Source of the DNA: a virus
Lineage: Duplodnaviria > Caudoviricetes
Reading direction: 5' to 3' (one strand)
Length of the DNA: 42,950 bases
Virus record (IMG/VR): IMGVR_UViG_3300045540_000070
Location: 1-42,950 of that record
How positions within the stretch are numbered: position 1 is the stretch's first letter; the number at the start of each line of letters is the position of its first letter. The position numbers and the translations under genes were made by a program. Under the pieces are notes generated by a model, which was not told where the DNA came from, ran no database searches, and worked only from the letters and a program-made list of their open reading frames with translations. This document shows positions 1,571-32,626 of this stretch, piece after piece.

Positions 1571-3973
1571 TTAAAAAGGTATTTCATCGTTATTAATTTC
1601 TTCTTTTTCGCCCTTGAACTTAATCCATCTACCCGTGTTATTACGTCCTTCTGTCGGCATAACGCCTGTAACAAATAGTCCGTAAGATACTAACCACTTG
1701 TAAAAGATAGTCCGTGATATAGTCATCTTAGCCTTTGGTGCAAAGTCTGGATTGTCTTGGATAAAGTCAAGGTATAAATCTTGCTTGTATAGCGTTTCTC
1801 CTAATGCGATTGTTGGTTTATTATCCATTAGTCCAGCCCATTCAATAAACTCGTGGCACGTATCGGCTGATAACTTACGAATCTTAAGATTAACAAACTC
1901 ACTCTTAACTAAACCTGTAGTTAAATATGCTTGTAAACTTTTAATCATATAATTATCAAACTTACACCACTCACCATTATCCCACTCAGTAAATAACAAT
2001 CTACCGAATTCAACCAATGGCGTGAACTCCTTGGTGTAGAACTGCTTGAACTCCAGCTCCCACTTACGTCTCTCGAATGAGTTACCCTTACCCTTGATGG
2101 CGTAGTTAGTCGTGATAATAATCTTAGGAGACTTCGCGAACGGGATATGCATCGCATCTTTGTTCTTTCTCTCTAAGGTTATACCCTCTGTGATCACACT
2201 GAACAGCCTCTCAAAGTTAAAGTGTTTCTTAACGTCGTCAAACGCAAGTACCTGTGTATCAACCGATACTGTCTGGTATGGAAATGAACTATCGAAGTTC
2301 ACGCTCTTACCGTCAATGAATGCCAGCTTCTTCATCTGAGATATTGCATTGGTAAATAACCCCTTTCCTGTTCCTCCCTCTGGATTATCTGTTATTACCT
2401 CGTCATTTAGAATAACGGCAGGACAATAAGATAAATTCTTGTATCCGTGCATAAGGAATCCAATCGTGCTCTCAAGAGAGTCAATGCGAGTCTGCTCATC
2501 GTTTGATACGTTTGCTATAAATGTCTTGAAGTCACAGTCTGTGATCTCACAAATGTTGAAATCTCTATCTATAACCTGATCTGCCCAGATATAACCACCA
2601 AGGTCGATATAGTCAATAATATCAATATTGTCCTTGTCTATGCGGACAGCGCAATTCTTGTAATAAAGGTACGCATTATCCTTGTCGTCCTCCATGAAGT
2701 ATACATCAACAGAAGATAGTAGCGATAGGAAGTCTTCCTTAAAGAACCTAGTCTTATCAGCGAAGTAGTTGTACACTGACAGATCATCTACGGTCTGTAG
2801 GTGGTTTAGTACGAAGTCCTTGATCTCATCCTCTGACGTGTGGTCGATGAGGTTGTTCGTTACCTTTACAAAGATGTAACTCTTACCACCATTCGGCATG
2901 TATTTGAAGAATCCATTGTCCTCCAAAAACTCTCTGAATAGGTAGTGAATGATGCTGATGGCACCCTTGTCTGACTTGATCCAGTACTTCTGAGTTGCCT
3001 CGTCTCTGTCAATGGTATCAATCACATCGTCAATTGCGTTCTCCGATATGTTAAGCTCCATAAGCTCTGACTTGATATCTTTCTTAGATACACCGCGTTT
3101 AATCTTCTGACGAACTTGCGTTAACTTATCATCGTCTTCATAAAACTTTGTACCGAACTTCTGTGTCTGTCTGTAGGCTGAGTCGATGATAGTTCTTATT
3201 TCTTGAATTGGGAAGTCTTGACTGTCGAACTGACCTGCCACATACTCAGCAAGCGACTTACTTACACCATAGTCATTGAATGCTGATGCTAATATGAATA
3301 CGTTATTATTACGCTCACCATCTACAAGCCCATACTTTTTAGTCCACCACTTCATAAGAATATCGATAATCTTGTTCTCGTTAGTGATTGGAATAGTAGG
3401 TTTAGAGGTATCCCTATCCATCTCTATATACTCGTGCTCAGACAGTGTATTCCATAACTCACTAGATGTGTTCACATAAATCTCTGGGTCGTATGACTCA
3501 TAGCATACACGTGATATGTTCTTGGACGTCTTATCGAAATATTTTGAGTTGAAGTGTTTCTCAAGCGAGTTGAAGTAGTTCTTGTGGTTCTCAATGTCTC
3601 TTGGCACTTTAACAATTACTTTTAGTCCGTTCCCTGACGGAGAAACAAATACTGAGTAGGTGTACTTATTCTTTGAAATTAGAGCCTTATCAACCTTCAT
3701 TTCTTTCTCGGTAGCATAACCATCAAAGTCTAGGCAAATGAATCCCGAGTGCTCTAAAATAGCCTTATCCTCACGCTTTGTAAACTTACCTGAGAAACAT
3801 ACCGCTGGTAGTTGTTGCTTAAGTATATTTCTTGTAGACTTATCCTTCTCGTTACGAATACCTTCAACAATGTCTTTAGAGGCACCGTTCTGTATTCTGT
3901 CAAGCATAACCCCAATCGTTTTAAAGAATGGTGTTGATGTTGACTTGATGTTTTTGAAGATAGTTATTTCCAT
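1571..3973 (-). CDS. DNA primase-helicase (BT4734/VirE-N-like primase, PriCT-like domain, C-terminal P-loop helicase)
   Basis: 800 aa; HSGFICLDFD and FVSPSGNGLK primase-like motifs, GERNN, Walker A EGGTGKG, Walker B LAFDD, acidic DEIPF tail. Confidence 0.85.
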   Translation of the reverse strand: MEITIFKNIKSTSTPFFKTIGVMLDRIQNGASKDIVEGIRNEKDKSTRNILKQQLPAVCFSGKFTKREDKAILEHSGFICLDFDGYATEKEMKVDKALISKNKYTYSVFVSPSGNGLKVIVKVPRDIENHKNYFNSLEKHFNSKYFDKTSKNISRVCYESYDPEIYVNTSSELWNTLSEHEYIEMDRDTSKPTIPITNENKIIDILMKWWTKKYGLVDGERNNNVFILASAFNDYGVSKSLAEYVAGQFDSQDFPIQEIRTIIDSAYRQTQKFGTKFYEDDDKLTQVRQKIKRGVSKKDIKSELMELNISENAIDDVIDTIDRDEATQKYWIKSDKGAISIIHYLFREFLEDNGFFKYMPNGGKSYIFVKVTNNLIDHTSEDEIKDFVLNHLQTVDDLSVYNYFADKTRFFKEDFLSLLSSVDVYFMEDDKDNAYLYYKNCAVRIDKDNIDIIDYIDLGGYIWADQVIDRDFNICEITDCDFKTFIANVSNDEQTRIDSLESTIGFLMHGYKNLSYCPAVILNDEVITDNPEGGTGKGLFTNAISQMKKLAFIDGKSVNFDSSFPYQTVSVDTQVLAFDDVKKHFNFERLFSVITEGITLERKNKDAMHIPFAKSPKIIITTNYAIKGKGNSFERRKWELEFKQFYTKEFTPLVEFGRLLFTEWDNGEWCKFDNYMIKSLQAYLTTGLVKSEFVNLKIRKLSADTCHEFIEWAGLMDNKPTIALGETLYKQDLYLDFIQDNPDFAPKAKMTISRTIFYKWLVSYGLFVTGVMPTEGRNNTGRWIKFKGEKEEINNDEIPF

Positions 3974-3977
3974 AATT

Positions 3978-4160
3978 TTAAAACGGACAATCCGATTTTT
4001 TGTTTTTTAATATTAATTCTTTGTATTCTCGTTTAATCTTTTCCTGTATTGCTTCACGAATGAACTTACCTACATCAACGTTATAATACTTCATTTTTTG
4101 AAGCGTTTTTAATTGTGTTTCTGAAATCCTTATAACCTTTGTTTTATTGAGTAGTTTCAT
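3978..4160 (-). CDS. small putative DNA-binding protein (ribbon-helix-helix-like) next to the cassette array
   Basis: 60 aa; TKVIRISETQLKTL...VGKFIREAIQEKI fits a strand-helix-helix pattern (inference). Confidence 0.55.
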   Translation of the reverse strand: MKLLNKTKVIRISETQLKTLQKMKYYNVDVGKFIREAIQEKIKREYKELILKNKKSDCPF

Positions 4161-4244
4161 AATTGTAATACATTTATAGCGTTTATTTAGGAGTTAGTGG
4201 CAAGCGTAGGACAGCACTCCGCCCCACGCTTCGCCAAAAACACT

Positions 4245-4460
4245 TTACCATTCAGCCACAAACATTTGTCTGTAACCGCAATGATTTACAAGGAAATCAA
4301 TTTTACCCCACGAGCCATTACCTAAGTCGTGTTGTGGCCGAAATTGTCCTTTGTTCGATTTTCCATTTAACACGAGAACCTCTTTGTTTTGGGTTACTCT
4401 TACATCGTGTTTTTTGCGAAGCTGGAAAAGCACTTCGTCCTCATTGTGTTTACGTGCCAT
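4245..4460 (-). CDS. cassette 1 hypothetical protein
   Basis: 71-aa ORF between junction 4193 and site 1. Confidence 0.65.
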   Translation of the reverse strand: MARKHNEDEVLFQLRKKHDVRVTQNKEVLVLNGKSNKGQFRPQHDLGNGSWGKIDFLVNHCGYRQMFVAEW

Positions 4461-4485
4461 AATTTAAGCAGTTTAAAACGCCAGC

Positions 4486-4619
4486 CACTAACATTGTATA
4501 ACTGCAAGTGGGGGCTGTGTGCCACATTGCAAGTTATTGCTCCTAATTTAGTTTAGTGTCAATGTGAAGGTTCGGAGCTTTCAATCCCCCACCTGACAGT
4601 TATACAAGTATCGTTACAA
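4486..4619 (+). repeat. attC-like site 1 (134 bp)
   Basis: CACTAAC...GTTACAA; arms ttgtataactg/cagttatacaa and caagtggggg/cccccacctg. Confidence 0.85.
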
Positions 4620-4625
4620 GTAATC

Positions 4626-5369
4626 CTAAGCAACATCGTCGAACATCGTTACTTGATTAATATTTGATTTAGAAATTATTCCTCTTGCAGTATTAAAGAT
4701 TGTTTTTCCTGCTTCATAATCTACCAGGTTACGAGCCATTTTAAGCATCGGTTGTTCTCCTTTGTATTTGGTAAAATCGTATTTATGAAATTCACACAAT
4801 CCTTTTAATTCTTGTTTAGCAGATGAAATAGCAAATCTTCTATCTCCTAAATCGTTAGGTAATTTAAAGTTTGTCCAATACAAATGGCGACCTCTTTTTA
4901 TCGCAGGAACTAATGGCTCATAATAAGGGATTACATTTTCAACAACCCATTTACCTGTTTTATAATAATGCTGTAAAAACAAAATTTCTTGATATAATTT
5001 CATATCGGGATAAATTGCTTCTGTTGTAGTTTCATAATTTGAACTATTCCAATACCTGGCTCTTGAATGACTTGGACAAGGTGGCGAACTCCATATAAAA
5101 TCAAATTCTTTATAATTATCAAGTAAATACTGGTGTGCATCCGCTACAATTACCTTATCATTTGGAAATCTCTCTTGATACAATTTTGCTGCTTCCGGGT
5201 CAAGTTCTACGGCTGTAACTTCACAATCTTCCCATAGCAGTCTATTACCACCTAAACAAGCATATAAATTCAAAACACGAAAAGGACTACTTGTAACACG
5301 TGCTATACTCAATGCCTCATTCTCTGTATTATCGTTTTCTAACATCTTTTTGTTTTTAATAATTAACAT
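4626..5369 (-). CDS. cassette 2 DNA (cytosine-5) methyltransferase
   Basis: Motif I LNLYACLGG, motif IV WSSPPCPSHS, motif VI VVENV; start (5369 or 5345) lies inside site 2. Confidence 0.85.
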   Translation of the reverse strand: MLIIKNKKMLENDNTENEALSIARVTSSPFRVLNLYACLGGNRLLWEDCEVTAVELDPEAAKLYQERFPNDKVIVADAHQYLLDNYKEFDFIWSSPPCPSHSRARYWNSSNYETTTEAIYPDMKLYQEILFLQHYYKTGKWVVENVIPYYEPLVPAIKRGRHLYWTNFKLPNDLGDRRFAISSAKQELKGLCEFHKYDFTKYKGEQPMLKMARNLVDYEAGKTIFNTARGIISKSNINQVTMFDDVA

Positions 5370-5413
5370 TCGTTTTCATAAATCGGCACTAAGTATAGCA
5401 CCATACGTTATGT
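5291..5413 (+). repeat. attC-like site 2 (123 bp)
   Basis: TTGTAAC...GTTATGT; arms gtgctatact/agtatagcac. Confidence 0.85.
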
Positions 5414-5414
5414 A

Positions 5415-5648
5415 TCATTTTTTCTTACGCATTATATCAGCAATAGCATAATTCCATCTTTCCATCAATTCACCATCCGCTTGGTTATGGAAAATTTTAA
5501 TCATTTCCATACTTGTAAATCTTTCAGGTGAACCTTTAAGGTAGAAATGAGAATTACCACTTGGTTTATAATCAGGAAATGATTCCGTTTTATAATGTTG
5601 TATATCTAAATCCACCAACCAATCTAACATCTTTTCTAAATTTTCCAT
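5415..5648 (-). CDS. cassette 3 hypothetical protein
   Basis: ORF fills the cassette; likely start MENLEKM at 5648 (alternative 5669). Confidence 0.6.
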   Translation of the reverse strand: MENLEKMLDWLVDLDIQHYKTESFPDYKPSGNSHFYLKGSPERFTSMEMIKIFHNQADGELMERWNYAIADIMRKKK

Positions 5649-5660
5649 AATAAAAACGAT

Positions 5661-5791
5661 ACATAACAAAGTGTATAAGTAATAACCGAGTTATGTGGTT
5701 TATTTAAGTTACTACTTCTATTTAACATTATCTTTAATTCAAACTTTTGTACTTCTAAATCGGTTACTACTCATACACTCAACCGTTATGT
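5661..5791 (+). repeat. attC-like site 3 (131 bp)
   Basis: ACATAAC...GTTATGT; arms agtgtataagtaataaccga/tcggttactactcatacact. Confidence 0.85.
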
Positions 5792-5977
5792 GATAGTTTC
5801 AGAGACGTTTATTTTATAAAACATATTCGGATGACATCCAAAAATATAAAACCATCCATCTTCTAAATTTACAAGTCCGTCTTCGTGAATATGAACTATT
5901 TTATGTTTTTTACCGTGATATAAAACCACTTCTCCAACTTTATAAGTCAGTTTGTCTATGTAATATCTATCGTTCAT
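5786..5977 (-). CDS. cassette 4 hypothetical protein
   Basis: 63 aa; its TAA stop is the TTA of the GTTA junction. Confidence 0.55.
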   Translation of the reverse strand: MNDRYYIDKLTYKVGEVVLYHGKKHKIVHIHEDGLVNLEDGWFYIFGCHPNMFYKINVSETIT

Positions 5978-6293
5978 TACAAACTAATTTTAAAGCTGAA
6001 ATCCCACCTTGTTTTGAAGTTTCATCTATATGTAAATCGTTTATGATTTTAATAGCTTTTTCTACTTTATTAAAAAAATTAAAATCAATGATTAAAGGAA
6101 TTACAAATAAATCAAAATATTCATCATTATCAGTTACACCTCCGCAGAAAAATTCTCCAGAAGAAACTATAAAGCATTCAGGCTTTCCGTTTGACCGATA
6201 TTCTGTTTTTAGACAAATTGTTTCTCCAAATAAAAATAATCCAATAGGGCAATTCCCTAATCTTACTTTTCGTTTCTTTTTTGTAATTAGCAT
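5967..6293 (-). CDS. cassette 4 hypothetical protein
   Basis: 108-aa ORF. Confidence 0.6.
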   Translation of the reverse strand: MLITKKKRKVRLGNCPIGLFLFGETICLKTEYRSNGKPECFIVSSGEFFCGGVTDNDEYFDLFVIPLIIDFNFFNKVEKAIKIINDLHIDETSKQGGISALKLVCNER

Positions 6294-6313
6294 CTTTTTT
6301 ATTTTTAAATTAA

Positions 6314-6433
6314 TTATTCTTCAATATTAAATATGTAGTCTATAATGATGTAGAAAAAACCAAAAAAAGTCATTATTGGAATTAATATTGGTCTTAATAT
6401 TTTAACTTCTAAAATTCTATTTATTATTTTCAT
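6314..6433 (-). CDS. cassette 4 small hydrophobic peptide (39 aa)
   Basis: Translated by hand: MKIINRILEVKILRPILIPIMTFFGFFYIIIDYIFNIEE. Confidence 0.4.
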   Translation of the reverse strand: MKIINRILEVKILRPILIPIMTFFGFFYIIIDYIFNIEE

Positions 6434-6434
6434 A

Positions 6435-6728
6435 TTACTTCTGTTTATGTAAGTTTAAAAAATTAATAATATCTTGACCTTGAAAATAAACTGTTCCTTT
6501 TGTGCTTTCTTCTCCATTCATTTTTATTTGAATGTAGATTATTTTAGTTTTATCACGCCACGTTTGAATTGTTCTTACGCTTACATTTAAAACTTCCGCT
6601 AATTCTTTAACGGTATAATAAGCATCAGGATTTATTCCTTGTTTTACACTCGGTATTGCTAATTCGGTTTCGTTTAATTGTTGGATTAAACTTTCCATTG
6701 TATCCATTAATTTCTCTGTATTGTCCAT
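6435..6728 (-). CDS. cassette 4 excisionase-like / MerR-type HTH (HTH_17-like) DNA-binding protein
   Basis: YYTVKELAEVLNVSVRTIQTWRDK followed by ...VYFQGQDIINFL. Confidence 0.75.
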   Translation of the reverse strand: MDNTEKLMDTMESLIQQLNETELAIPSVKQGINPDAYYTVKELAEVLNVSVRTIQTWRDKTKIIYIQIKMNGEESTKGTVYFQGQDIINFLNLHKQK

Positions 6729-6825
6729 TTTTTATCTGTATTATTGTTTTTATTGGCTTTAACACCATTTTAATTATCTGTATTTTGTTAAGGGATTTGT
6801 TAGAACTTATGTTAAAGAAACCATC

Positions 6826-6956
6826 ACATAACAAGCGTTTGGCGAGATTGCTGATTTTGTGGTTCATTCACGTTTTCGTTTCGCATCATATTTTATTTTA
6901 AGTTGAAGTTTTATTTTTCCGAAGTCAGCAACCTCGCCAAGTTGCAAACGTTAGCT
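6826..6956 (+). repeat. attC-like site 4 (131 bp)
   Basis: ACATAAC...GTTAGCT; arms ttggcgagattgctga/tcagcaacctcgccaa. Confidence 0.85.
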
Positions 6957-7184
6957 GCAAGCTGGCGGACTTGGCAACTCCATCCAATGTGTTACAGTGG
7001 CTTCTTTGACTGGGTATTCACTTTCAAAATGCGTCCCCTTCCAATATTCAATACCCTCGCCCCATTCTGTATAAGTTAATACTTTGACATACTTACCTCC
7101 ATCTGGTAGTCTGTCTTTTACAGAAATCCAGCCAGCAGCTAACATTGCATTGGCGTTATTGCCGTTTAGTTCTTTGTTTGACAT
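6951..7184 (-). CDS. cassette 5 DUF551-like protein
   Basis: WISVKDRLP...VTHWMELPSPP; starts in site 5 and stops on the junction. Confidence 0.8.
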   Translation of the reverse strand: MSNKELNGNNANAMLAAGWISVKDRLPDGGKYVKVLTYTEWGEGIEYWKGTHFESEYPVKEATVTHWMELPSPPACS

Positions 7185-7263
7185 TTTGTATAAATTTTAA
7201 TCATTAGTAATTCTGTTCAACTTTTGTGCATCGGCAACAAACGCCAATGCTTTACCGTTAGCA
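7137..7263 (+). repeat. attC-like site 5 (127 bp)
   Basis: AGCTAAC...GTTAGCA; arms gcattggcgttattgccg/cggcaacaaacgccaatgc. Confidence 0.85.
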
Positions 7264-7698
7264 GTAACTTTTGAAAAGCGTAACGCAAATCAGAATAATT
7301 AATGCTATAAAATTTATCCAATTAAAAAGCCTTACATTTTGATACCAAGCGGAATCAACTATAAAATTTCTTGCACCATCAAGATACATCAATGGAATAA
7401 AAGTTATAAATCTAAATGGAATCCATAATAAATTAAAAATTATGCACCAAATTGTTATCTGTAATCCTGTAATTGGCAACTTAATTCCTTTGTGTAATTG
7501 CCTAAATGAAAAAGTTGTGAAGTCAAAAAATAAATATACATAATGACCTTTTTTAATATTCTTACCTATTCTAAAAAATCCGTTATGAAAACCAAAATAG
7601 TATTTATCATAATTAGAAAATTTACGAACCTTAAAGAACAAAGCTACTGCTAACAGCATTTTGTGGCAATTGCGGGGTTTAGGTTTATTTTCAAGCAT
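7258..7698 (-). CDS. cassette 6 putative membrane protein
   Basis: 146 aa with hydrophobic segments; starts in site 6 and stops on the junction. Confidence 0.6.
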   Translation of the reverse strand: MLENKPKPRNCHKMLLAVALFFKVRKFSNYDKYYFGFHNGFFRIGKNIKKGHYVYLFFDFTTFSFRQLHKGIKLPITGLQITIWCIIFNLLWIPFRFITFIPLMYLDGARNFIVDSAWYQNVRLFNWINFIALIILICVTLFKSYC

Positions 7699-7782
7699 TG
7701 TTTTTTAATTTAAAGTTTAGTCTATATTTGTATGGTTGGTGTTAAATTTTCCGCAATTGCCACAAAATGCGAAACGTTAGCA
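7648..7782 (+). repeat. attC-like site 6 (135 bp)
   Basis: TGCTAAC...GTTAGCA; perfect 20-bp arms gcattttgtggcaattgcgg/ccgcaattgccacaaaatgc. Confidence 0.9.
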
Positions 7783-7783
7783 G

Positions 7784-8023
7784 TTATTTTCCCAATCGCA
7801 CAAATCCGCCTTTATCTTGTGTTAGATATTCAACAGAATCAACTTCTATAATTGAATATCTGTATCCATTTATAACTCTTTCATCAATCAATTTTATTCT
7901 GTTATTGGACTTCCTGTTAATAGAATTTGATTCTTTTTCGGTGCATCCGACAAATAAAACAACTGCTAACAGCACATAAGCGCAAGCAATTAATTGGGTC
8001 TTGAATTTAAATTTTGTTTTCAT
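7784..8023 (-). CDS. cassette 7 putative lipoprotein
   Basis: Basic N-terminus, hydrophobic core, LFVGC lipobox-like motif. Confidence 0.65.
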   Translation of the reverse strand: MKTKFKFKTQLIACAYVLLAVVLFVGCTEKESNSINRKSNNRIKLIDERVINGYRYSIIEVDSVEYLTQDKGGFVRLGK

Positions 8024-8099
8024 TTTGTTATTATTTATGATTAATTTAATTATTATTTTTTATCGGCAATTGCCTTCGCTTATATGCAAAACGTTAGTG
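7964..8099 (+). repeat. attC-like site 7 (136 bp)
   Basis: TGCTAAC...GTTAGTG; arms gcacataagcgcaagcaatt/aattgccttcgcttatatgc. Confidence 0.85.
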
Positions 8100-8105
8100 G
8101 CAAGG

Positions 8106-8330
8106 CTAAGAACGATTATCCATATCAACAAGTTTATCAAACTTATATTTCATATCAGTCCACCAACTACCATCTCCAAGATGCCACCCACACCATTGCT
8201 CAATAAGTTTTGAATTATCCATTTCATTAATGTCTTCATCATAGGTATTATCATTTTGGTCGTCAGCACCTTGTCTTTGTCTTACTTCGCCTAAAATTCC
8301 AAGTACCTTTAATTTTTCAATATTTGTCAT
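8106..8330 (-). CDS. cassette 8 hypothetical protein
   Basis: 74-aa ORF filling the cassette. Confidence 0.65.
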   Translation of the reverse strand: MTNIEKLKVLGILGEVRQRQGADDQNDNTYDEDINEMDNSKLIEQWCGWHLGDGSWWTDMKYKFDKLVDMDNRS

Positions 8331-8358
8331 TTTTATTTAATTTTGTGAAAAGCCCAGC

Positions 8359-8489
8359 CACTAACAGCGTGTATAAAAAATGTCGGGTTCTCGGTTAATT
8401 TAAAGTTTTGTAATTATAATTAAGTTTTGCGTTTGCTTAACGTTTCGGTTTCAAAATCCGCCACTTCTTATACACGCAAAACGTTATGT
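8359..8489 (+). repeat. attC-like site 8 (131 bp)
   Basis: CACTAAC...GTTATGT; arms gcgtgtataaaaaatgtcgg/ccgccacttcttatacacgc. Confidence 0.85.
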
Positions 8490-8495
8490 GCCATT

Positions 8496-8738
8496 CTATT
8501 CCATCCAAACGTATTTACTTGGGTGATATTTTTTTGGTCTTTTAAGAGTTTGTTTTTTATCGCAAACTGCACATCTTCTACTAAATCCTTCTTCAAGCAA
8601 TACTTTACATCTGTTATCTTTAAATATCGACCATTTATAAATTTCCCAATCGTGAAAAGAAAAACGGCACATAACAGCGGTTATAAGCAATTGCCACTTA
8701 TGTATTAATTTTGAAAATAGTCTTGTACTTGTATTCAT
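8496..8738 (-). CDS. cassette 9 small Cys/His protein
   Basis: CRFSFHDW...RRCAVCDK; starts inside site 9. Confidence 0.6.
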   Translation of the reverse strand: MNTSTRLFSKLIHKWQLLITAVMCRFSFHDWEIYKWSIFKDNRCKVLLEEGFSRRCAVCDKKQTLKRPKKYHPSKYVWME

Positions 8739-8802
8739 TGTTTATAAATTGAAAGTTAAGGCAGTTTTATTGGCAACTGCTTATAGCCACATAACGTTAT
8801 CA
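8669..8802 (+). repeat. attC-like site 9 (134 bp)
   Basis: ACATAAC...GTTATCA; arms ggttataagcaattgcca/tggcaactgcttatagcc. Confidence 0.85.
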
Positions 8803-9111
8803 CTCAGCTTGGTCGGAATCCGTAAAAGAAATAATATCTATAATTTGAATAATAAATAAGGTAATGCACATAACTAAATATAACCAATGTCTATATCCCC
8901 AATGCCAAGTTGGGTCGTGAAATCCACATTCAGCGTAATTACAATGTTTATAAATAGTATTGTAAATACTATCATTTGGAGTTCCACTTCCTAAACATTT
9001 CCAATCTCCTAAAAAGGAGTGTAAATAATCGCCAACAAATGTTGAAAATATTGCGATTGTGAAAAGTAAAATAACTTTTAAAGAAATTTTTTGTGATTTG
9101 TTAAATTTCAT
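8800..9111 (-). CDS. cassette 10 two-TM membrane protein
   Basis: Two hydrophobic helices flanking a Cys/His loop (HDPTWHWGYRHW). Confidence 0.65.
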   Translation of the reverse strand: MKFNKSQKISLKVILLFTIAIFSTFVGDYLHSFLGDWKCLGSGTPNDSIYNTIYKHCNYAECGFHDPTWHWGYRHWLYLVMCITLFIIQIIDIISFTDSDQAE

Positions 9112-9156
9112 TTTGATTTAGTTTATAATTAATAATTGTGTTTAAAAAAGCCGATA

Positions 9157-9290
9157 ATATAACAATAGCTATAAGTAATTAAGGCAACAGTCTTTGATTT
9201 AAAGATTTGTTCTCTGTCCTTTTTATATCAATTTTCAATTTAGAAAATCGGTATTTCATTCCTTAACTACTCATAGCAATACCGTTATTT
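9157..9290 (+). repeat. attC-like site 10 (134 bp)
   Basis: ATATAAC...GTTATTT; arms gctataagtaattaagg/ccttaactactcatagc. Confidence 0.85.
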
Positions 9291-9383
9291 CAACTTATCC
9301 TTCCACTCTTGGTAAATCCAAGTGTTTACCCATATAAATAGTACGAAGAAACATCCTACTAAAAATGCTGCTATATTTTCCAT
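9285..9383 (-). CDS. small membrane peptide (32 aa) whose stop codon is the array's right junction
   Basis: Translated by hand: MENIAAFLVGCFFVLFIWVNTWIYQEWKDKLK; coupled to 9383..9589. Confidence 0.5.
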   Translation of the reverse strand: MENIAAFLVGCFFVLFIWVNTWIYQEWKDKLK

Positions 9384-9636: not shown

Positions 9637-9960
9637 TTAGAAAGGAAGTGAATCTTCCTGTACTTGTTGTTGTAACGGCTGTGCTCCTTCAGATAGTTTT
9701 TTAATTTTCCATCCTTTAATTGAATTGAAATACTTGTCAATCCCCTCAGCATTTGTCCATTTACGACCTCCGATATTGATTGAAACTTCTACAACGTCAC
9801 CAACTTTGTATGGATCGATTAGGTCTGATTTGTCTCCACCAAACTCAATTAAGATACTTTGTGGATATTTTTCATCCGTGGTTATTACTAATTCACTTTT
9901 TTTGAATTTTTCGTTCCCAACATTTAAACTAATTACTTCAATTTTTCCTTCTAATGTCAT
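9637..9960 (-). CDS. DUF3127-family putative ssDNA-binding protein
   Basis: KYPQSILIEF...VEVSINIGGRKW...YFNSIKGW, SSB-like EDSLPF tail. Confidence 0.8.
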   Translation of the reverse strand: MTLEGKIEVISLNVGNEKFKKSELVITTDEKYPQSILIEFGGDKSDLIDPYKVGDVVEVSINIGGRKWTNAEGIDKYFNSIKGWKIKKLSEGAQPLQQQVQEDSLPF

Positions 9961-10029: not shown

Positions 10030-10752
10030 TTATAATTCTTGTTCCGCAATAAAATTGTTGATATCTTCTGTGGCTTTGTCGCTAAAGAATTTATTGTAAA
10101 CATCAACTGCTTGTAAGACCTTAGTTCGTCCACTTAAAATAAAGTCGTCTGAAGGCGTGAAGATTCCAAGTCGATGACTTTTCTTACAAATTACATAGAA
10201 AATTAATGGCTTATTGAATAGTTGTTGGTAGATATATGCTTGTGAATCATAGTTGTATTTTCTAGCGCTCCAACGAAAGTCGTCAATTTCCGAGGTTGTT
10301 TTAATGTCGATCAAAAAGTCTTTACAAATTATATCGCACTTGCCTTTGAATGGTAATCCAAATAATTCCATTGTTGCAGGCTCTTCGTAAATATTACCGT
10401 CTGCGTAAATATCTTCATAGAATTTAAAGTTTCCTTTTATAATCGAAACCAACTTTTCTAACTCGTCTTTCTCATTTTTAAGCAATAACAATTTACCTTG
10501 CGAAGCATCCTTATAAATGTTTGTGTTTCTGGTTGATGCTTCAACTATTTCAAAGTTACCAATCTTTTCTGGCTCTAAAATAGCCGTGTGTAGATACGAA
10601 CCTTGTAGCATTGGTAAAGTTGGTTCGGTTCGTACTTTAAATAGCTTAGGATTGCTTAAAAGCGTTCCTATGTCGCTGTTACTAATATACTTTGAGCCGA
10701 ACTCTCCGTAGTAGTTCTCGTCCGACCTTAATTTTTCTATTATTTCTTTCAT
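10030..10752 (-). CDS. PD-(D/E)xK exonuclease (RecE/Exo VIII-like, DUF3799-like)
   Basis: GSYLHTAILEP, FKGKCD..LIDIKTT, YDSQAYIY motifs. Confidence 0.8.
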   Translation of the reverse strand: MKEIIEKLRSDENYYGEFGSKYISNSDIGTLLSNPKLFKVRTEPTLPMLQGSYLHTAILEPEKIGNFEIVEASTRNTNIYKDASQGKLLLLKNEKDELEKLVSIIKGNFKFYEDIYADGNIYEEPATMELFGLPFKGKCDIICKDFLIDIKTTSEIDDFRWSARKYNYDSQAYIYQQLFNKPLIFYVICKKSHRLGIFTPSDDFILSGRTKVLQAVDVYNKFFSDKATEDINNFIAEQEL

Positions 10753-15276: not shown

Positions 15277-15915
15277 TTAAATTTTATTACCTTTCTTAAA
15301 ATTATCTATTGCCCATAATGGTTGAAAGTTTGTGTAGTGATTTAGTTTAATTAGGTGTTCTTCATCTGTTGCACGTGATACGGGGTAGATATGGTCTAAA
15401 TGCCACAGTCCTTGATTTTCCCATGTCATTCCTTCAGTGAACTGATTTTCTAAGTGGGTTTTAAACTCTTCAAACGAGCATCCAAGTATTTTATAAGTTT
15501 TAGATTTTTTAGTGTAGCTATTTCCTTTTATTGATATTCTTATTAAAGTTGATATATTACATCTTAATTTAAATAATGGATCAACTAACTTTCTATTTTT
15601 AAAGTAATAACTTATTTTATTTTTATTTTTAGATGTGTATTTTTTATTTTGTTCTTTTATATTTTCTTTGTTGTTTAAACGATATTGTTTTTTATTTAAT
15701 TTTATACATTCTTTGTTGTCTATGTAATATTTTTTAGATTTTTTTATTATATATTCTTTATTGTCTAAATAATATTTTTTATTATATTCTTTATTATTTA
15801 TTCTATATTCTTTTTCACATTCTTTACATTTTGATTGATAGCCATTTTTTTTAGATTTATTTTTATAAAAATAAATAAATTCCTTCTCAACTTTGCATTT
15901 TGTACAAACTTTCAT
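15277..15915 (-). CDS. HNH endonuclease-like protein with N-terminal Zn finger
   Basis: CTKC...CKEC, K/N/Y-rich helix, WHLDHIYP...NHYTNFQPLWAIDNFKKGNK; start taken at MKVCTKC. Confidence 0.85.
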   Translation of the reverse strand: MKVCTKCKVEKEFIYFYKNKSKKNGYQSKCKECEKEYRINNKEYNKKYYLDNKEYIIKKSKKYYIDNKECIKLNKKQYRLNNKENIKEQNKKYTSKNKNKISYYFKNRKLVDPLFKLRCNISTLIRISIKGNSYTKKSKTYKILGCSFEEFKTHLENQFTEGMTWENQGLWHLDHIYPVSRATDEEHLIKLNHYTNFQPLWAIDNFKKGNKI

Positions 15916-15930
15916 ATTATTAAATAACAA

Positions 15931-19145: not shown

Positions 19146-19763
19146 TTAAATTAATTTTAATTGTGTGTTATTTATTATTTTGTTTGATTTCATTAAATCA
19201 TCCATCGCCCAAAGAGGTTGAAAGTTTGTATAATGATTAAGTTTTATTAATTCGTTTTCACTCTTTGCGCTTGATATTGGTATAATGTGATCCAGGTGCC
19301 AAAGGTTTTTATTTTCCCAATTCATACCTTTTGAAAATTGTATTTCTATATAGTTTTTAAAATCTTCAAATGAACATCCTAAAATTTCATGGGTTCTGGA
19401 TGCTTTTGTATAACCTCTTTTTGTTATTGAGTTTCTTATTGCGGTTCTTATTATTGCGGTTAATCTAAATAAAGGATCTATTTGTTTTTTATTTTTAACG
19501 TATAGACTTATTCTGTCTTTATTTTTTAAATAACTTATTCTGTTTCTTTCTTTTTTGGTCAATGTCGATTTTAATACTTTTCTTTCTATCGTCAAAGATT
19601 GTTTTGCTAGTCTTAAAAGTTTTTTATTTTCAGCCTCTCTTAGTTTGGTTCCTTTTTGATAGTCATTTAATTGCTTTGCTACTTGGTCAATTTGGTACTT
19701 ATTAATCGCGTCTCTCGCCTCGTCAATTGATTGCTTAATGTAGTTTTCGTTTCTGTATTTCAT
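19146..19763 (-). CDS. HNH endonuclease-like protein (paralog of 15277..15915)
   Basis: LGCSFEDFK...WHLDHIIP...LIKLNHYTNFQPLWAMDD. Confidence 0.85.
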   Translation of the reverse strand: MKYRNENYIKQSIDEARDAINKYQIDQVAKQLNDYQKGTKLREAENKKLLRLAKQSLTIERKVLKSTLTKKERNRISYLKNKDRISLYVKNKKQIDPLFRLTAIIRTAIRNSITKRGYTKASRTHEILGCSFEDFKNYIEIQFSKGMNWENKNLWHLDHIIPISSAKSENELIKLNHYTNFQPLWAMDDLMKSNKIINNTQLKLI

Positions 19764-22143: not shown

Positions 22144-23745
22144 ATGAGTACAGGATATTCTCCGAAGGACCTATTATTCGACAAAGAAGGTAGGGATAAA
22201 TTAATTAACGGCATCACTACAATGTCTAAAGCAGTAAAGAGCACACTCGGTCCACGAGGTAAAACAGTGTTAATTGAAAGTCCAAATCACACGCATGGAA
22301 TTACGGTCACAAAAGATGGAATTTCAGTAGCAAAGTCAATTTTCTTATTAGACCCAGTAGAAAACTTAGCGGTAAAAATGATGAAAGAAGCAGCTGATCG
22401 TACAGCCACAAGTGCTGGTGATGGGACTACAACTTCTATCGTACTTACAGAAGCAATTGTACTACAAGGTCAAGAGCTTTTGAACGACAAACATAATGTA
22501 ACAGAAGTAATACGACACATTAACGACATTACGACATCAATCGTATCAAGATTAGAAAAGAAAGCAAAGAAAGTTAGTGGTAAAACATTACGTAATGTAG
22601 CATCAATATCAGCGAATAACGATTCGGAACTTGGGGCTATAATCGCTGGTACGTACGAAAAGGTCGGTAAGGACGGTATTGTAACAATCGAAGACTCTCA
22701 GACATCGGAGACATATACGAGTGTAACAAATGGTATTAAGATAGAAAGAGGATATACATCTAATATGTTTGTTAACGACCATAAGAAAGACGAGTGCATT
22801 TTAGACAACGTATTAGTATTGGTTACCGACCAGGAGATTAGTAATATTTTATCTATTGAAAAGATATTAAAGACTGTTATTCAAGAGCAGAAGAAGTTAT
22901 TAATTATCGGTACTTGTAGTCAAAACGTAATTAATACACTAGCCGCAAACGTAGTAAAGAACAACCTTAAGCTATGTAATATTATACCTCCTCAGTTTGG
23001 GTACAAGAGGAATGAGTTGATGGGTGATATTGCGTTGGCTGTAGGTGCTAAGTACTTCTCAGAGAGCACAGGAGACGATTTGAGTTTAATGGAGATTAAT
23101 GATTTAGGAAAAGCAGACAAGATTATTGTAGGAAGAGATAATACAGTAATTGTACGTTCAGAAATTGCAACAGATGAAGTAACTCAAAGAGTAGCTCAAC
23201 TATGGGATGCTTATAACTTATCGGATAAAAAGGCAGACAAGGACTTTATCAAGCAACGTATCGCTAGTTTAACAGGTGGTATTGGAGTTATTTATGTAGG
23301 TGGTAACTCAGACCTTGAGCAAAAGGAACGTAAGGATAGGGTTGACGACGCTGTATGTGCGGTTAGGTCTGCGTTAGAGGAAGGTATCTTACCAGGTGGT
23401 GGATTAGCCTTGTTCAGTGAGTCTTACAGTATTATTGCTGATGCAGACGATACAATTGACGATATTAGTCCAAATAAGTATGTGGCTATGCATATTATGG
23501 CACGTGCAATACAATCACCACTCTTGCAGATTATGACTAATGCTGGATTGGACGGATATGAGGTAATGGAGTTATCGTTTGTTAAGGACTGGGGGTATGA
23601 TGTTAAGAATGAGGTGTATGGAGACATGTTTAAGATGGGTATTATCGACCCATTAAAGGTAACAAAGAACGCACTTAAGAACGCAGTAAGCGTAGCAACG
23701 ACAATATTAAGTACAAATGCAATTATAACAATAACACGAGCGTAA
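22144..23745 (+). CDS. groEL: phage chaperonin GroEL
   Basis: TLGPRG, TKDGISVAK, GDGTTT, ILPGGG, IIDPLKV; TATATTTG box at 22111-22118. Confidence 0.97.
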   Translation: MSTGYSPKDLLFDKEGRDKLINGITTMSKAVKSTLGPRGKTVLIESPNHTHGITVTKDGISVAKSIFLLDPVENLAVKMMKEAADRTATSAGDGTTTSIVLTEAIVLQGQELLNDKHNVTEVIRHINDITTSIVSRLEKKAKKVSGKTLRNVASISANNDSELGAIIAGTYEKVGKDGIVTIEDSQTSETYTSVTNGIKIERGYTSNMFVNDHKKDECILDNVLVLVTDQEISNILSIEKILKTVIQEQKKLLIIGTCSQNVINTLAANVVKNNLKLCNIIPPQFGYKRNELMGDIALAVGAKYFSESTGDDLSLMEINDLGKADKIIVGRDNTVIVRSEIATDEVTQRVAQLWDAYNLSDKKADKDFIKQRIASLTGGIGVIYVGGNSDLEQKERKDRVDDAVCAVRSALEEGILPGGGLALFSESYSIIADADDTIDDISPNKYVAMHIMARAIQSPLLQIMTNAGLDGYEVMELSFVKDWGYDVKNEVYGDMFKMGIIDPLKVTKNALKNAVSVATTILSTNAIITITRA

Positions 23746-24012
23746 ATGAGTAACTTTCAACCAATAAACAAATATATAATCATCAAAACGATTGATGAAG
23801 AGATAAAAACAGAATCAGGGTTGCTACTTACTGGTAGTGATGCTGATAAGTTTAGATACAAGAAAGGATTAGTAGTAAAACCAGGTACTAATGTAGAAGT
23901 AATCAAAGAAAACGACTTAATTTACTACGATAAAGGAGCTGGCTATACTATGTTGATTGAAAACGTGCCTTACACGATTATTCGGGAGGCTGATGTGGTG
24001 GTAGTCCTCTAG
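23746..24012 (+). CDS. groES: co-chaperonin GroES
   Basis: QPINKYIII...KTESGLLL...YTIIREADVVVVL, directly after groEL. Confidence 0.9.
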   Translation: MSNFQPINKYIIIKTIDEEIKTESGLLLTGSDADKFRYKKGLVVKPGTNVEVIKENDLIYYDKGAGYTMLIENVPYTIIREADVVVVL

Positions 24013-30562: not shown

Positions 30563-32626
30563 ATGGCTACATTTAACTTAAGTAACAAGATACAAATTGT
30601 AAATCCTTCTGCGAATGTAGACTCTCATTACGGAACATACGCGTCTTTATCAGATGCGTATATCGGAGTTCCAGAGATATTAAGGGAAAAAGGAAAGACA
30701 GTTGGAATATTAGAAAGTGGTAGTGTGGTTGAGTACTGGTGGAAGTCAGGAATTACAGATATTGATTTAGTCAAGAAAGAAACTTCAGTGCATATATCAG
30801 GTACAACAAACACAATACCTAAATTTACAATTGGCGGTTTAGGAGATAGTCAAATTGCTGAAAGTGGTGCTGGAGTTACAATTGGAGGAGGCTATGATTT
30901 CTATAAATTAAACGTAAACGGTACTATCTTTTGTTTAGATGAAATCATTATGTTTGGTTCATCCGACCAATTTTCAGCATACGATACGGACAGTACTTTT
31001 TTAGGAAAATTGAGTTTCAATAAATTTACAGGGGCTTCGTTTGGAACTTTTACAGATTTACCAGTTAAAATTTTGCAAAATGGAACAGAAGCAGCTAGAA
31101 TTTCAGACAATCAAAACCTTTTAATAGGAACAACTGTAGACAATGGTCAAAAATTACAAGTTGAGGGCGATGCGTTAATTAATGGCATAAATGTTGGACG
31201 AGGAGGCGGAAATTCAATTGCTAATGTAGTTTTAGGAAATTATGCATTAGCTTTAAATACTGTAGGATTATATAATGTTGCTATAGGAACTACTGCAATT
31301 TATTCAAATACAACTGGAGATAACAATATTGGAATTGGTGCAAATTCACTATACCTAAATACAACTGGAAGCGGTAATTTAGGTATTGGTCCATCTACAA
31401 GATGTTTGAATCCTAATGATAATAACTCAATTATGATAGGGTTTGATACCGAAGGAGTTGGGTCAAATTCAGTTGTATTAGGTAATAGTTCAATAACAAA
31501 AACAATATTAAGAGGAAATGTTTTAATAGGAACAACTGTAGACAATGGTCAAAAATTACAAGTTGAGGGCGATGCTTTAATTAATGGTTCATTGAGTAGT
31601 GGAACAGGCACTATAACATCAGGAGACTTTTCACATGCTGAGGGCGATACTTCTGTAGCGAATGGATATGGTTCTCATGCTGAAGGCAAAGAATCTATAG
31701 CAAATGGAATATGTTCTCATGCAGAGGGTGGTAATTCTATAGCAAACGGAAATTCTTCTCATGCAGAGGGTGGTAATTCTATAGCAAACGGAAATTCTTC
31801 TCATGCAGAGGGTGATAATTCTATAGCAAACGGAAATTCTTCTCATGCAGAGGGGTACTTTACTATAGCAGATGGAGATTATCAGCACGTACAAGGAAGG
31901 TACAACACGCCTATTACAAATGCAGCTGCATTTATTATTGGTAATGGTACCGATAATTCAAATAGAAGCAATTTAGTCGAAGCTTATGGAGATACGTTTT
32001 ATATTAATGAAAATTTAAGCATATATAAATCTATAAAAGATTCTACATCTTCAGTAGGTTCAGATGGTCAAATATTAACATCTACCGTAACTGGTACGCA
32101 ATGGATTACTCCACAACAAAACGGACTTTACGCACAAACTGCTTTAAGCACGCCAATAGTTTTCGCAAGTGGTGAAGCAAGTTTAATAGGTGCTGGAGTT
32201 GGTACATTATCAGTTCCTGCAAATGCTTTTAAGGTTGGTGATTCATTTGTGGCTAAAATGTGTGGAAGATTAACGTGTGCAAATAATGAAATTTTGCATA
32301 TTAGAGTACGTTCAAATGGCGTTTTAATTATTGATGCATTACAATACACTTTGGCTGCAACAACGGATAAGTACTATGATTTAATATTAGATTTTACAGT
32401 TACTAAATTGGGAGAAGCAGGAGTTGCTGAATTATTTGCAAATGGAATGTTTACTTACAATAAAAATGCGTCGGTATCGATGGAAGGAGTTCACTTTGGT
32501 CAGATTAGTAATACAGTATTTGATACAACTGTTAATAATTCATTGACTATTACCGCTGAATGGGTAACATCTAGCGCAACGAATACAATACGCTCACAGA
32601 ATTTCACATTAACTAAAGTTTACTAA
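30563..32626 (+). CDS. tail fibre with adhesin-head-like (SHAEG) repeats
   Basis: NTTG/N.AIG repeats and six 14-aa SHAEG repeats. Confidence 0.75.
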   Translation: MATFNLSNKIQIVNPSANVDSHYGTYASLSDAYIGVPEILREKGKTVGILESGSVVEYWWKSGITDIDLVKKETSVHISGTTNTIPKFTIGGLGDSQIAESGAGVTIGGGYDFYKLNVNGTIFCLDEIIMFGSSDQFSAYDTDSTFLGKLSFNKFTGASFGTFTDLPVKILQNGTEAARISDNQNLLIGTTVDNGQKLQVEGDALINGINVGRGGGNSIANVVLGNYALALNTVGLYNVAIGTTAIYSNTTGDNNIGIGANSLYLNTTGSGNLGIGPSTRCLNPNDNNSIMIGFDTEGVGSNSVVLGNSSITKTILRGNVLIGTTVDNGQKLQVEGDALINGSLSSGTGTITSGDFSHAEGDTSVANGYGSHAEGKESIANGICSHAEGGNSIANGNSSHAEGGNSIANGNSSHAEGDNSIANGNSSHAEGYFTIADGDYQHVQGRYNTPITNAAAFIIGNGTDNSNRSNLVEAYGDTFYINENLSIYKSIKDSTSSVGSDGQILTSTVTGTQWITPQQNGLYAQTALSTPIVFASGEASLIGAGVGTLSVPANAFKVGDSFVAKMCGRLTCANNEILHIRVRSNGVLIIDALQYTLAATTDKYYDLILDFTVTKLGEAGVAELFANGMFTYNKNASVSMEGVHFGQISNTVFDTTVNNSLTITAEWVTSSATNTIRSQNFTLTKVY
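31631..31882 (+). repeat. 42-bp tandem repeat, 6 units
   Basis: Units start at 31631, 31673, 31715, 31757, 31799 and 31841. Confidence 0.9.

Follow-up and report, generated by a model that had tools for sequence, protein, structure and literature searches.

Integrons are the closest described relatives of the gene array reported here, and our study draws on portions of three articles about them (PMC2727003, PMC7790495, and PMC9024848). In these portions, attC sites are 57-142 nt long and have a characteristic pattern of extrahelical bases and spacers (PMC2727003), and the I2 helix of the integrase docks those extrahelical bases (PMC7790495). Phage-borne clusters of attC sites lacking an integrase (CALINs), one of them in a Polaribacter phage, are described in part of PMC9892861. 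The DNA analyzed in our study, hereafter the window, is the whole 42,950-bp stretch of IMG/VR record IMGVR_UViG_3300045540_000070, a partial genome of a freshwater phage with terminase, portal, and virion genes, for which uncultured phages and phages of Flavobacteriia gave the best database matches. The original prediction, made from the sequence, described there an integron-like array of ten gene cassettes in the region 4193-9290. Our study found that this array is real and that whole units come and go at its G^TT junctions (the caret marks the junction); in our judgment it is probably worked in trans by a tyrosine recombinase of Bacteroidota that acts on folded minus-strand hairpins.

Ten hairpin sites, opening with TAACA and closing with CGTTA as predicted, were located at 4489-9287, between the primase and the single-strand DNA binding protein (SSB) genes. 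Each measures 117-130 bp, and they are the same sites for which 123-136 bp had been given, the difference being three extra bases on each side. The ten units had been described as 307-1165 bp long, which we reproduced, and they start with G^TTA at 4193, 4613, 5407, 5785, 6950, 7257, 7776, 8093, 8483, and 8796. The left end of the array at 4193 is devoid of a hairpin and the right end bears one; every unit therefore owns the hairpin at its right end. It had also been proposed that every unit begins with the near reverse complement of its own end. This held for nine units, in which 8-9 of the 10 bases that follow GTTA agree with the reverse-complemented end of the same unit, but not for unit 10 (2 of 10); the three example pairs of ends were correct. 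The mean match is 7.9 of 10 with the unit's own end, 3.6 with that of the neighbour, and 3.1 with those of other units; the observed sum was reached in 0 of 200,000 permutations. The original prediction mentioned neither the conserved docking site at the left end, which is tied to a small gene, nor that every cassette open reading frame (ORF) lies on the minus strand of the window:

4193..4612, minus strand: cassette 1, 420 bp; ORF 4245-4460, hairpin 4489-4616
4613..5406, minus strand: cassette 2, 794 bp; C5 DNA methyltransferase 4626-5369 (PF00145), starting inside hairpin 5294-5410
5407..5784, minus strand: cassette 3, 378 bp; ORF 5415-5648, hairpin 5664-5788
5785..6949, minus strand: cassette 4, 1165 bp; three ORFs, hairpin 6829-6953
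6435-6728, minus strand: excisionase-type helix-turn-helix in cassette 4 (PF12728, phrog_66)
6950..7256, minus strand: cassette 5, 307 bp; DUF551 gene 6951-7184 (PF04448), hairpin 7140-7260
7257..7775, minus strand: cassette 6, 519 bp; ORF 7258-7698, hairpin 7651-7779
7776..8092, minus strand: cassette 7, 317 bp; lipoprotein-like ORF 7784-8023 (a label read from sequence), hairpin 7967-8096
8093..8482, minus strand: cassette 8, 390 bp; ORF 8106-8330, hairpin 8362-8486
8483..8795, minus strand: cassette 9, 313 bp; ORF 8496-8738, hairpin 8672-8799
8796..9283, minus strand: cassette 10, 488 bp; membrane-type ORF 8800-9111, hairpin 9160-9287

The first 14 bases of cassette 10 also open the first cassette in four other loci (L095, L104, L403, and L411), and cassette 10, with its poorly matched ends, is likely the oldest one, now fixed. 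Cassette 2 has the same start as the methyltransferase cassette of phage hemulen6-1 and is 74% identical to it from the first base; it was the only cassette whose protein gave tblastn matches, none of them in the bacterial loci examined. A search with a model built from the ten window sites (R1) found no further site in the window outside the array. No direct-repeat family was detected by a repeat search of the array, because the hairpin sites differ in sequence (59% mean column identity). An Rfam scan of the window gave nothing in the array and four chance matches near the contig end, and one window site compared with plasmids found no match.

The proposal that the phage captures and shuffles cassettes with junctions at G^TT was supported by gain, loss, and reordering at the junctions in relatives and in the probable source sample, the kind of variation that had been anticipated. 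Two relatives whose primases are 95-96% identical to that of the window, L002 and L004, have neither the array nor the 60-amino-acid (60-aa) gene found at its left end, and the array-free L002 matches the window from 9287 onward. Another relative (L005, 95%) carries this small gene, matches the window through the head of the array and over the same first 12 bases from the G, and then continues with different cassettes. Strong R1 sites are present in 4 of the 80 primase loci (L005, L013, L014, and L044); two of the arrays (L013:7900-9650 and L044:1-1300) lie near the SSB region of more distant relatives. Nine cultured vB_FspS phages of Flavobacterium share one head sequence, followed by 9-15 units each, which represent 34 cassette types in differing orders: type 18 precedes type 10 in mumin6-1 and comes after it in lillamy9-1, and the last three types are common to the eight phages in which the array end is covered. 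In alignments of these phages, 145 of 187 ends fall within 15 nt of a junction, versus 5.7% expected. The Polaribacter phage Freya_9 is devoid of exactly the 307-bp first cassette of Freya_10, and in Freya_5 and Freya_1 the head is joined to later junctions (the Freya_10 record was used whole, and those of Freya_1, 5, 6, 8, and 9 in part). The Freya isolates (L374, L379-L383), which belong to one species, show nested cassette losses beside their own recombinase and constitute a ready experimental system. In sequencing run X1, the probable source sample, a contig joint passes from 4611 to 5406 and omits 794 bp, exactly cassette 2, with a depth of 25.5 for the joint versus 31.3 for cassette 2. 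Contigs of three other runs begin at 4193, 5406-5407, 7256, 8093, and 8793: one of run X9 spans 4193-4567 (cassette 1), one of run X4 spans 5406-5790 (cassette 3), and in run X3 a 1333-bp contig matches the window only over 7256-7756 (cassette 6), another covers 8093-8370 (cassette 8), and cassette 10 is joined to the right flank.

We analyzed the predicted fold of the sites on both strands. Folds of the minus strand of the window sites gave z values of -1.5 to -6.2 against 60 dinucleotide shuffles, site 7 being the weakest, and the minus strand is the better folder in all ten circular forms of the cassettes. In 26 distinct sites from other phages, aligned by fitting to the model, 90.9% of the cells pair, both partners vary in 18 of 20 stem pairs, and one G-T pair and one T-A pair are invariant; their covariation score was reached by 0 of 500 shuffles. 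The bottom strand is the more stable one in 55 of 59 phage units and in 155 of 174 bacterial units. Of the 59 phage units, 55 have their genes on this same strand, while 156 of the 174 bacterial units have them on the top strand; that is, reading from the head towards the gene's own site, as in integrons, is found in those 156 bacterial units and is not found in the window or in those 55 phage units. The folding bias is therefore independent of the transcribed strand, which fits a DNA substrate and not an mRNA. Two bacterial loci (L146:7746-8123 and L164 7605-8123) have reversed cassettes of the phage type and are probably prophage arrays.

With respect to attC sites, AAC...GTT boxes pair in the circle in 9 of the 10 window units, with a purine/pyrimidine consensus that is not always followed, and the length of phage sites (70-130 nt, 5th-95th percentile) falls within the attC range. 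The two-sided spacer and the 2-3 extrahelical bases on the R''-L'' arm are not seen. Minimum-energy folds have instead a one-sided bulge of 3-4 nt after the R box in at least 40 of 59 phage sites and in 155 of 174 bacterial ones, with single bulges on the R'' side in 1 of 58 phage and 13 of 174 bacterial sites; the three classical Shewanella sites that fold end to end have the two-sided spacer. The R1 model found no match in the classical Shewanella integron. It is important to consider that 15 of 55 phage ORFs begin inside a hairpin, and that the two halves of the core stand more than 100 bp apart in the circle unless the strand folds.

Outside the window, an exact pattern scan found at least 123 stretches with such sites. 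Seventy-nine loci are listed, nearly all from Bacteroidota, and R1 finds 255 sites in them; among these loci, eight have a tyrosine recombinase, seven of which point into the head of the array, and in five the first cassette begins 45-104 bp past the recombinase stop codon. One Flavobacterium chromosome (G001:C1:2398869-2445569) carries an array of about 45 kb and about 45 sites, which starts about 600 bp after the recombinase gene; this genome also has scattered sites elsewhere. The recombinase was identified in 52 of 151 genomes from an even sample of Bacteroidota. A site lies within 1.5 kb of the host recombinase in 11 of 30 loci, always downstream and in one orientation, and in six genomes the recombinase diverges from the array yet stands at its head. 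In a test on 75 of the 149 further genomes drawn, sites were present in 19 of 25 recombinase-positive and in 18 of 50 recombinase-negative ones (p=0.0014). An integrase beside attI, as integrons have it, thus finds its counterpart in host loci and in 37 of 80 viral recombinase loci, where 171 of 174 site matches lie upstream; in the window the 60-aa gene occupies that position. In recombinase-bearing phages, a gene of 265 aa starts 35-55 bp from the head site, which is the small gene's place in the window; the cultured Polaribacter phage Freya, whose recombinase was taken as a sign of lysogeny in part of PMC8776804, has this layout, as does Ingeline_1. We excluded the L186 recombinase from the head-of-array set because of its wrong orientation and its separate branch.

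These enzymes are not IntI. They score 178-219 bits on TIGR02249 (cut-off 265), in two separate stretches, and skip the IntI insertion when compared with PDB 2A3V, with a spacing of 59-67 residues versus 105-106 in IntI, about 40 residues shorter. The best family for most head-of-array enzymes is NF040815, an archaeal XerA model, whose cut-off is passed by two of the seven. In a FastTree phylogeny with two IntI proteins (IntI1 and the Shewanella IntI) and weak deep branches, the array-linked enzymes form one clade (support 0.90) apart from XerC/D and both IntI, and the host XerC/D are separate genes in a separate clade. An HUH recombinase had also been suggested; no HUH enzyme was found linked to the arrays, and the linked enzyme is a tyrosine recombinase devoid of the IntI insertion.

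Two further observations concern plasmids. The tet(X3) unit of Acinetobacter plasmids (L376:2685-5117, NZ_CP104735.1; L377:6001-8490, FJ012881.1) includes a 5'-truncated recombinase of the array-linked clade, a G^TTA located 172 bp past the recombinase stop codon and 18 bp before tet(X3), and then TAACA and a left arm like those of bacterial sites (E 2.6e-7), where the site breaks off; the two ends of the unit agree only in part. From its sequence, this unit looks like a fragment of the array system. In addition, the Chryseobacterium plasmid NZ_CP041688.1 (L378:9950-20990) carries an array with a recombinase and five R1 sites, which includes a repeated gene-less unit and insertions of IS110 and of a group II intron.

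At the left end of the array, the head lies beside the small gene and a palindrome:

3978..4160, minus strand: 60-aa small gene (phrog_25647, unknown function), in the place where other phages carry the recombinase
4159..4177, no strand: imperfect palindrome over the start of the small gene, core TGTAATACA at 4164-4172; a candidate operator, from sequence
4177..4196, plus strand: docking (attI-like) head site, hairpin-less, with a putative crossover between G4193 and T4194

Like the attI-type site of integrons, this head is hairpin-less, and cassettes would enter there. Its core, T(-9)A(-8)..A(-4)..A(-1)G^TTA, is common to small-gene phages and recombinase-bearing phages, and three of six host array heads resemble it. 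Relatives of the small gene were found in 26 viral and at least 46 metagenomic records. In 62 of the 71 small-gene loci that have enough flank among the matches listed, GTT[AG] occurs 28-45 nt upstream of the gene's start, mostly at 35 (background 15%), and the sequence is conserved up to the head G and variable beyond it, as it is in all nine cultured phages. The palindrome is conserved at 77-93% per position in 60 distinct head regions. R1 sites are present in 16 of the 26 viral and 22 of the 46 metagenomic loci listed, many of which are short, always upstream and on the strand of the gene. The gene downstream of the small gene varies between phages, so the module of small gene and docking site travels, and in the vB_FspS phages a distant homologue (21.9 bits) occupies the corresponding position. 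We had considered the left end as a chance landing in the stop codon of a native gene, and dropped this idea after the conserved head turned up. The monomer model of the small protein (predicted local distance difference test score 83) has helices at residues 14-25 and 30-45; its structural matches (Z<=3.9) include ribbon-helix-helix antitoxins, PutA52, NikR, and Arc, the best ribbon-helix-helix match (Z 3.8, root-mean-square deviation 2.6 over 47 residues) being tied with unrelated folds, and an atlas search returned only viral clusters without names. The model weakly predicts a DNA binder of the ribbon-helix-helix type, a family in which an N-terminal strand and two helices build an intertwined dimer.

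Regarding the source of the enzyme, the original prediction noted no integrase in the window, and indeed we found no tyrosine recombinase there with Pfam on 46 ORFs and a six-frame profile search, hence no IntI with an I2 insertion either. The complete 61,871-bp relative L005 gave no recombinase match, and none was found in hemulen6-1 or lillamy9-1. In ten small-gene phage records, the search returned one strong match and two faint ones below any cut-off, and one of five recombinase-bearing records has a small-gene match, a faint one. Within the Flavobacterium cheongpyeongense genus group, 101 genomes were sampled, and 58 of them carry the recombinase. Since neither the contig nor L005 encodes it, the enzyme is likely supplied in trans; with few matches in small-gene records and more than half of the sampled genus genomes positive, supply by the host is most likely, and a co-infecting phage is a possible source.

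From these comparisons, we propose that the recombinase joins the folded minus strand of a hairpin either to the following junction or, at 4193, to the docking site. The substrate would be the single-stranded hairpin, and the host would be the usual source of the enzyme. Excision would release a circle between two junctions, and insertion would occur at the head site, so that the oldest cassettes would stand farthest from the head. Because the cassettes are reversed, their transcription would come from the early/replication operon on the right, passing through each hairpin and ending in the small gene. The palindrome that adjoins the head is the likely binding site of the small protein, which would serve either as a repressor or as a helper that controls access of the recombinase. 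The phage likely benefits by rapidly swapping methyltransferases to counter host restriction, along with other accessory genes. This mechanism is suggested by sequence comparison, and several observations weigh against it. The short side of the X1 joint comprises only 25 letters, which makes the joint one supporting piece and not proof; X1 may be the window's own source, and its depths do not sum exactly (78 on the left, 46 on the right). In nine of the 71 small-gene loci, no GTT falls within the expected interval, although five of them look only mis-registered, and the head of the array in L013 has neither small gene nor recombinase beside it. The fold call of the small protein is weak, as its Z values indicate. 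Six of the 25 recombinase-positive genomes have no site, the co-occurrence statistic ignores kinship, and the profile used (A3) was built from enzymes near arrays, which favours a link between enzyme and array. The window is a partial genome, and the one small-gene phage record in ten that encodes a recombinase has it away from the array. Finally, the enzyme is devoid of the I2 helix that part of PMC7790495 ties to single-strand recombination, which leaves the single-strand step without a known structural basis. As that helix docks extrahelical bases, which are rare in the sites, the matching parts appear to be missing from both enzyme and site.

These last points lead to the alternative that the same recombinase family works on double-stranded DNA, the short inverted ends being its Xer-type core and the hairpin having some other role, for example as a cruciform or as an RNA signal. 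The missing IntI insertion, the archaeal XerA model as best family in most cases, the sites free of classical extrahelical bases, and the phage ORFs that begin inside hairpins all speak for it; we nevertheless regard it as unlikely, given the strong stem covariation with its invariant G-T pair, a folding bias that stays on one DNA strand though genes flip between phage and host, and core halves that come together only if the strand folds. A classical CALIN that was acquired from a host integron and depends on a genuine IntI would account for the AAC...GTT boxes, the better-folding bottom strand, a site length within the range of PMC2727003, and the precedent of phage CALINs in PMC9892861. This is extremely improbable in view of the asymmetric bulge with hardly any single bulges on the R'' side of phage sites, the failure of R1 to match the classical Shewanella integron, the head-of-array enzymes not being IntI, and the tblastn matches, which were limited to cassette 2 and absent from the bacterial loci examined.

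The phage's own homologous or annealing recombination could also shuffle genes at similar intergenic hairpins without any site-specific enzyme. An exonuclease of the PDDEXK type and the SSB adjoin the array, the contig has no tyrosine recombinase, and many arrays occur in lytic phages that have none; against this, the mean column identity of the sites is only 59%, breakpoints are concentrated at G^TT, new cassettes are seen at a hairpin-less head, and unit ends match themselves and not their neighbours, all of which makes it very improbable. Somewhat less so, yet still quite improbable, is a system complete in cis, with the recombinase in the unsequenced part of this phage's genome. The contig ends have no terminal overlap, close relatives measure 49-62 kb, and in one small-gene phage record the enzyme gene lies far away from the array, but the complete relative with the same platform, L005, has no match, and a phage-encoded enzyme usually stands directly at the head. 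Recombination in trans at folded hairpins is thus the reading that we prefer. A broader proposal, which we hold tentatively and consider possible but doubtful, is that a second integron system, built independently, operates in Bacteroidota and their phages, with a recombinase devoid of the IntI helix and its own folded single-stranded sites; lytic phages would parasitise it through a docking site and a 60-aa DNA-binding protein that recruits or gates the host enzyme, thereby reshuffling reversed cassettes of phage genes.

The genes that flank the array in the window are the following:

1571..3973, minus strand: primase/helicase-like gene, left flank, phage backbone (Pfam BT4734-like_N, PriCT_1, DUF5906; relatives 95-96% identical)
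9285..9383, minus strand: 32-aa native gene, right flank; its stop codon is the TTA of the last junction
9637..9960, minus strand: SSB gene, right flank (phrog_4932, DUF3127)
10030-10752: PDDEXK exonuclease near the array (Pfam/PHROG annotation)

Elsewhere in the window, we identified at 22144-24012 a phage-encoded GroEL (PF00118) followed by an 88-aa GroES-like ORF (the GroES label was read from sequence), and a 687-aa ORF (30563-32626) with short tandem peptide repeats (AEG...S.A.G..SH) at 31300-31900. Two related ORFs (15277-15930 and 19146-19763) end in an HNH-like motif, have no Pfam match, and are probably homing endonucleases; genes similar to them adjoin the primase or the SSB gene in L002 and L003.

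These results point to a largely unrecognised, integron-like gene-trading system: the surveys in the available part of PMC9024848 found integrons nearly absent from Bacteroidetes, yet the array-linked enzyme occurs in 52 of 151 genomes, with arrays of about 45 sites. For lytic phages, it would mean ordered swapping of methyltransferases, which can be tested as a cause of the differences in host range described in part of PMC7077304. It would also be a natural case of hairpin-site recombination without an I2 helix, which bears on the evolution of integron integrases. Moreover, it offers a candidate enzyme for the unexplained gene capture in Riemerella and for the 'xerD' beside tet(X3); a section of PMC7473080 asks whether this 'XerD' mobilises tet(X). 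If the proposal of a second integron system is true, it would explain how Flavobacteriales capture resistance genes without homology and how the xerD-tet(X3) unit arose. Because phage-host pairs are available in culture, ordinary tests suffice.

We found no description of this array system in the literature covered, which excludes most subscription journals and holds hints only. The first hint is that of the phage CALINs of Qi et al. 2023 (PMC9892861), which share with our arrays attC-like sites, methyltransferase cassettes, and lytic phages without an integrase; the available part of that article differs in that the 14 phages of Table S1 have 2-4 sites each and the tested sites are short and classical. 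No Flavobacterium phage was found named in its available text and tables, while the vB_FspS genomes of 2020 carry 9-15 cassettes, and its Polaribacter phage P12002L gave one weak R1 match (30.6 bits). The second hint is the 140-bp attC-like hairpin after aph(3')-IVb in Riemerella anatipestifer (part of PMC13148043), which also concerns Bacteroidota and has a short 5' leader, a 3' hairpin, homology-free integration, and a layout like that of the bacterial cassettes described here; that text names no enzyme and leaves the mechanism unresolved, and the likeness is one of description. The third is the label of NCBIfam NF040815, 'site-specific tyrosine recombinase/integron integrase', which describes a chromosome-resolving enzyme; with it belongs the gene next to tet(X) that is called 'xerD' or tnpF. 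With integrons themselves, the system has in common a tyrosine recombinase at the head of host arrays, a hairpin-less head site, cassettes whose initial TT follows a G, AAC...GTT hairpins of which the bottom strand folds better, a variable head and a conserved tail, and host arrays of about 45 sites. It differs in an enzyme of a separate clade whose IntI insertion region is about 40 residues shorter and which in hosts mostly points towards the array; in a one-sided bulge with few extrahelical bases; in the reversed genes of phage cassettes; and, in this phage, in a small gene that takes the integrase's place. The original prediction had called the pattern an established signature of integron cassettes, a description that our results do not sustain, since the sites have no classical spacer and extrahelical pattern, the enzyme has no IntI insertion, and the genes run the opposite way. 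The system works like an integron and, without that insertion and without the classical attC pattern, stands outside the definitions of IntI and attC.

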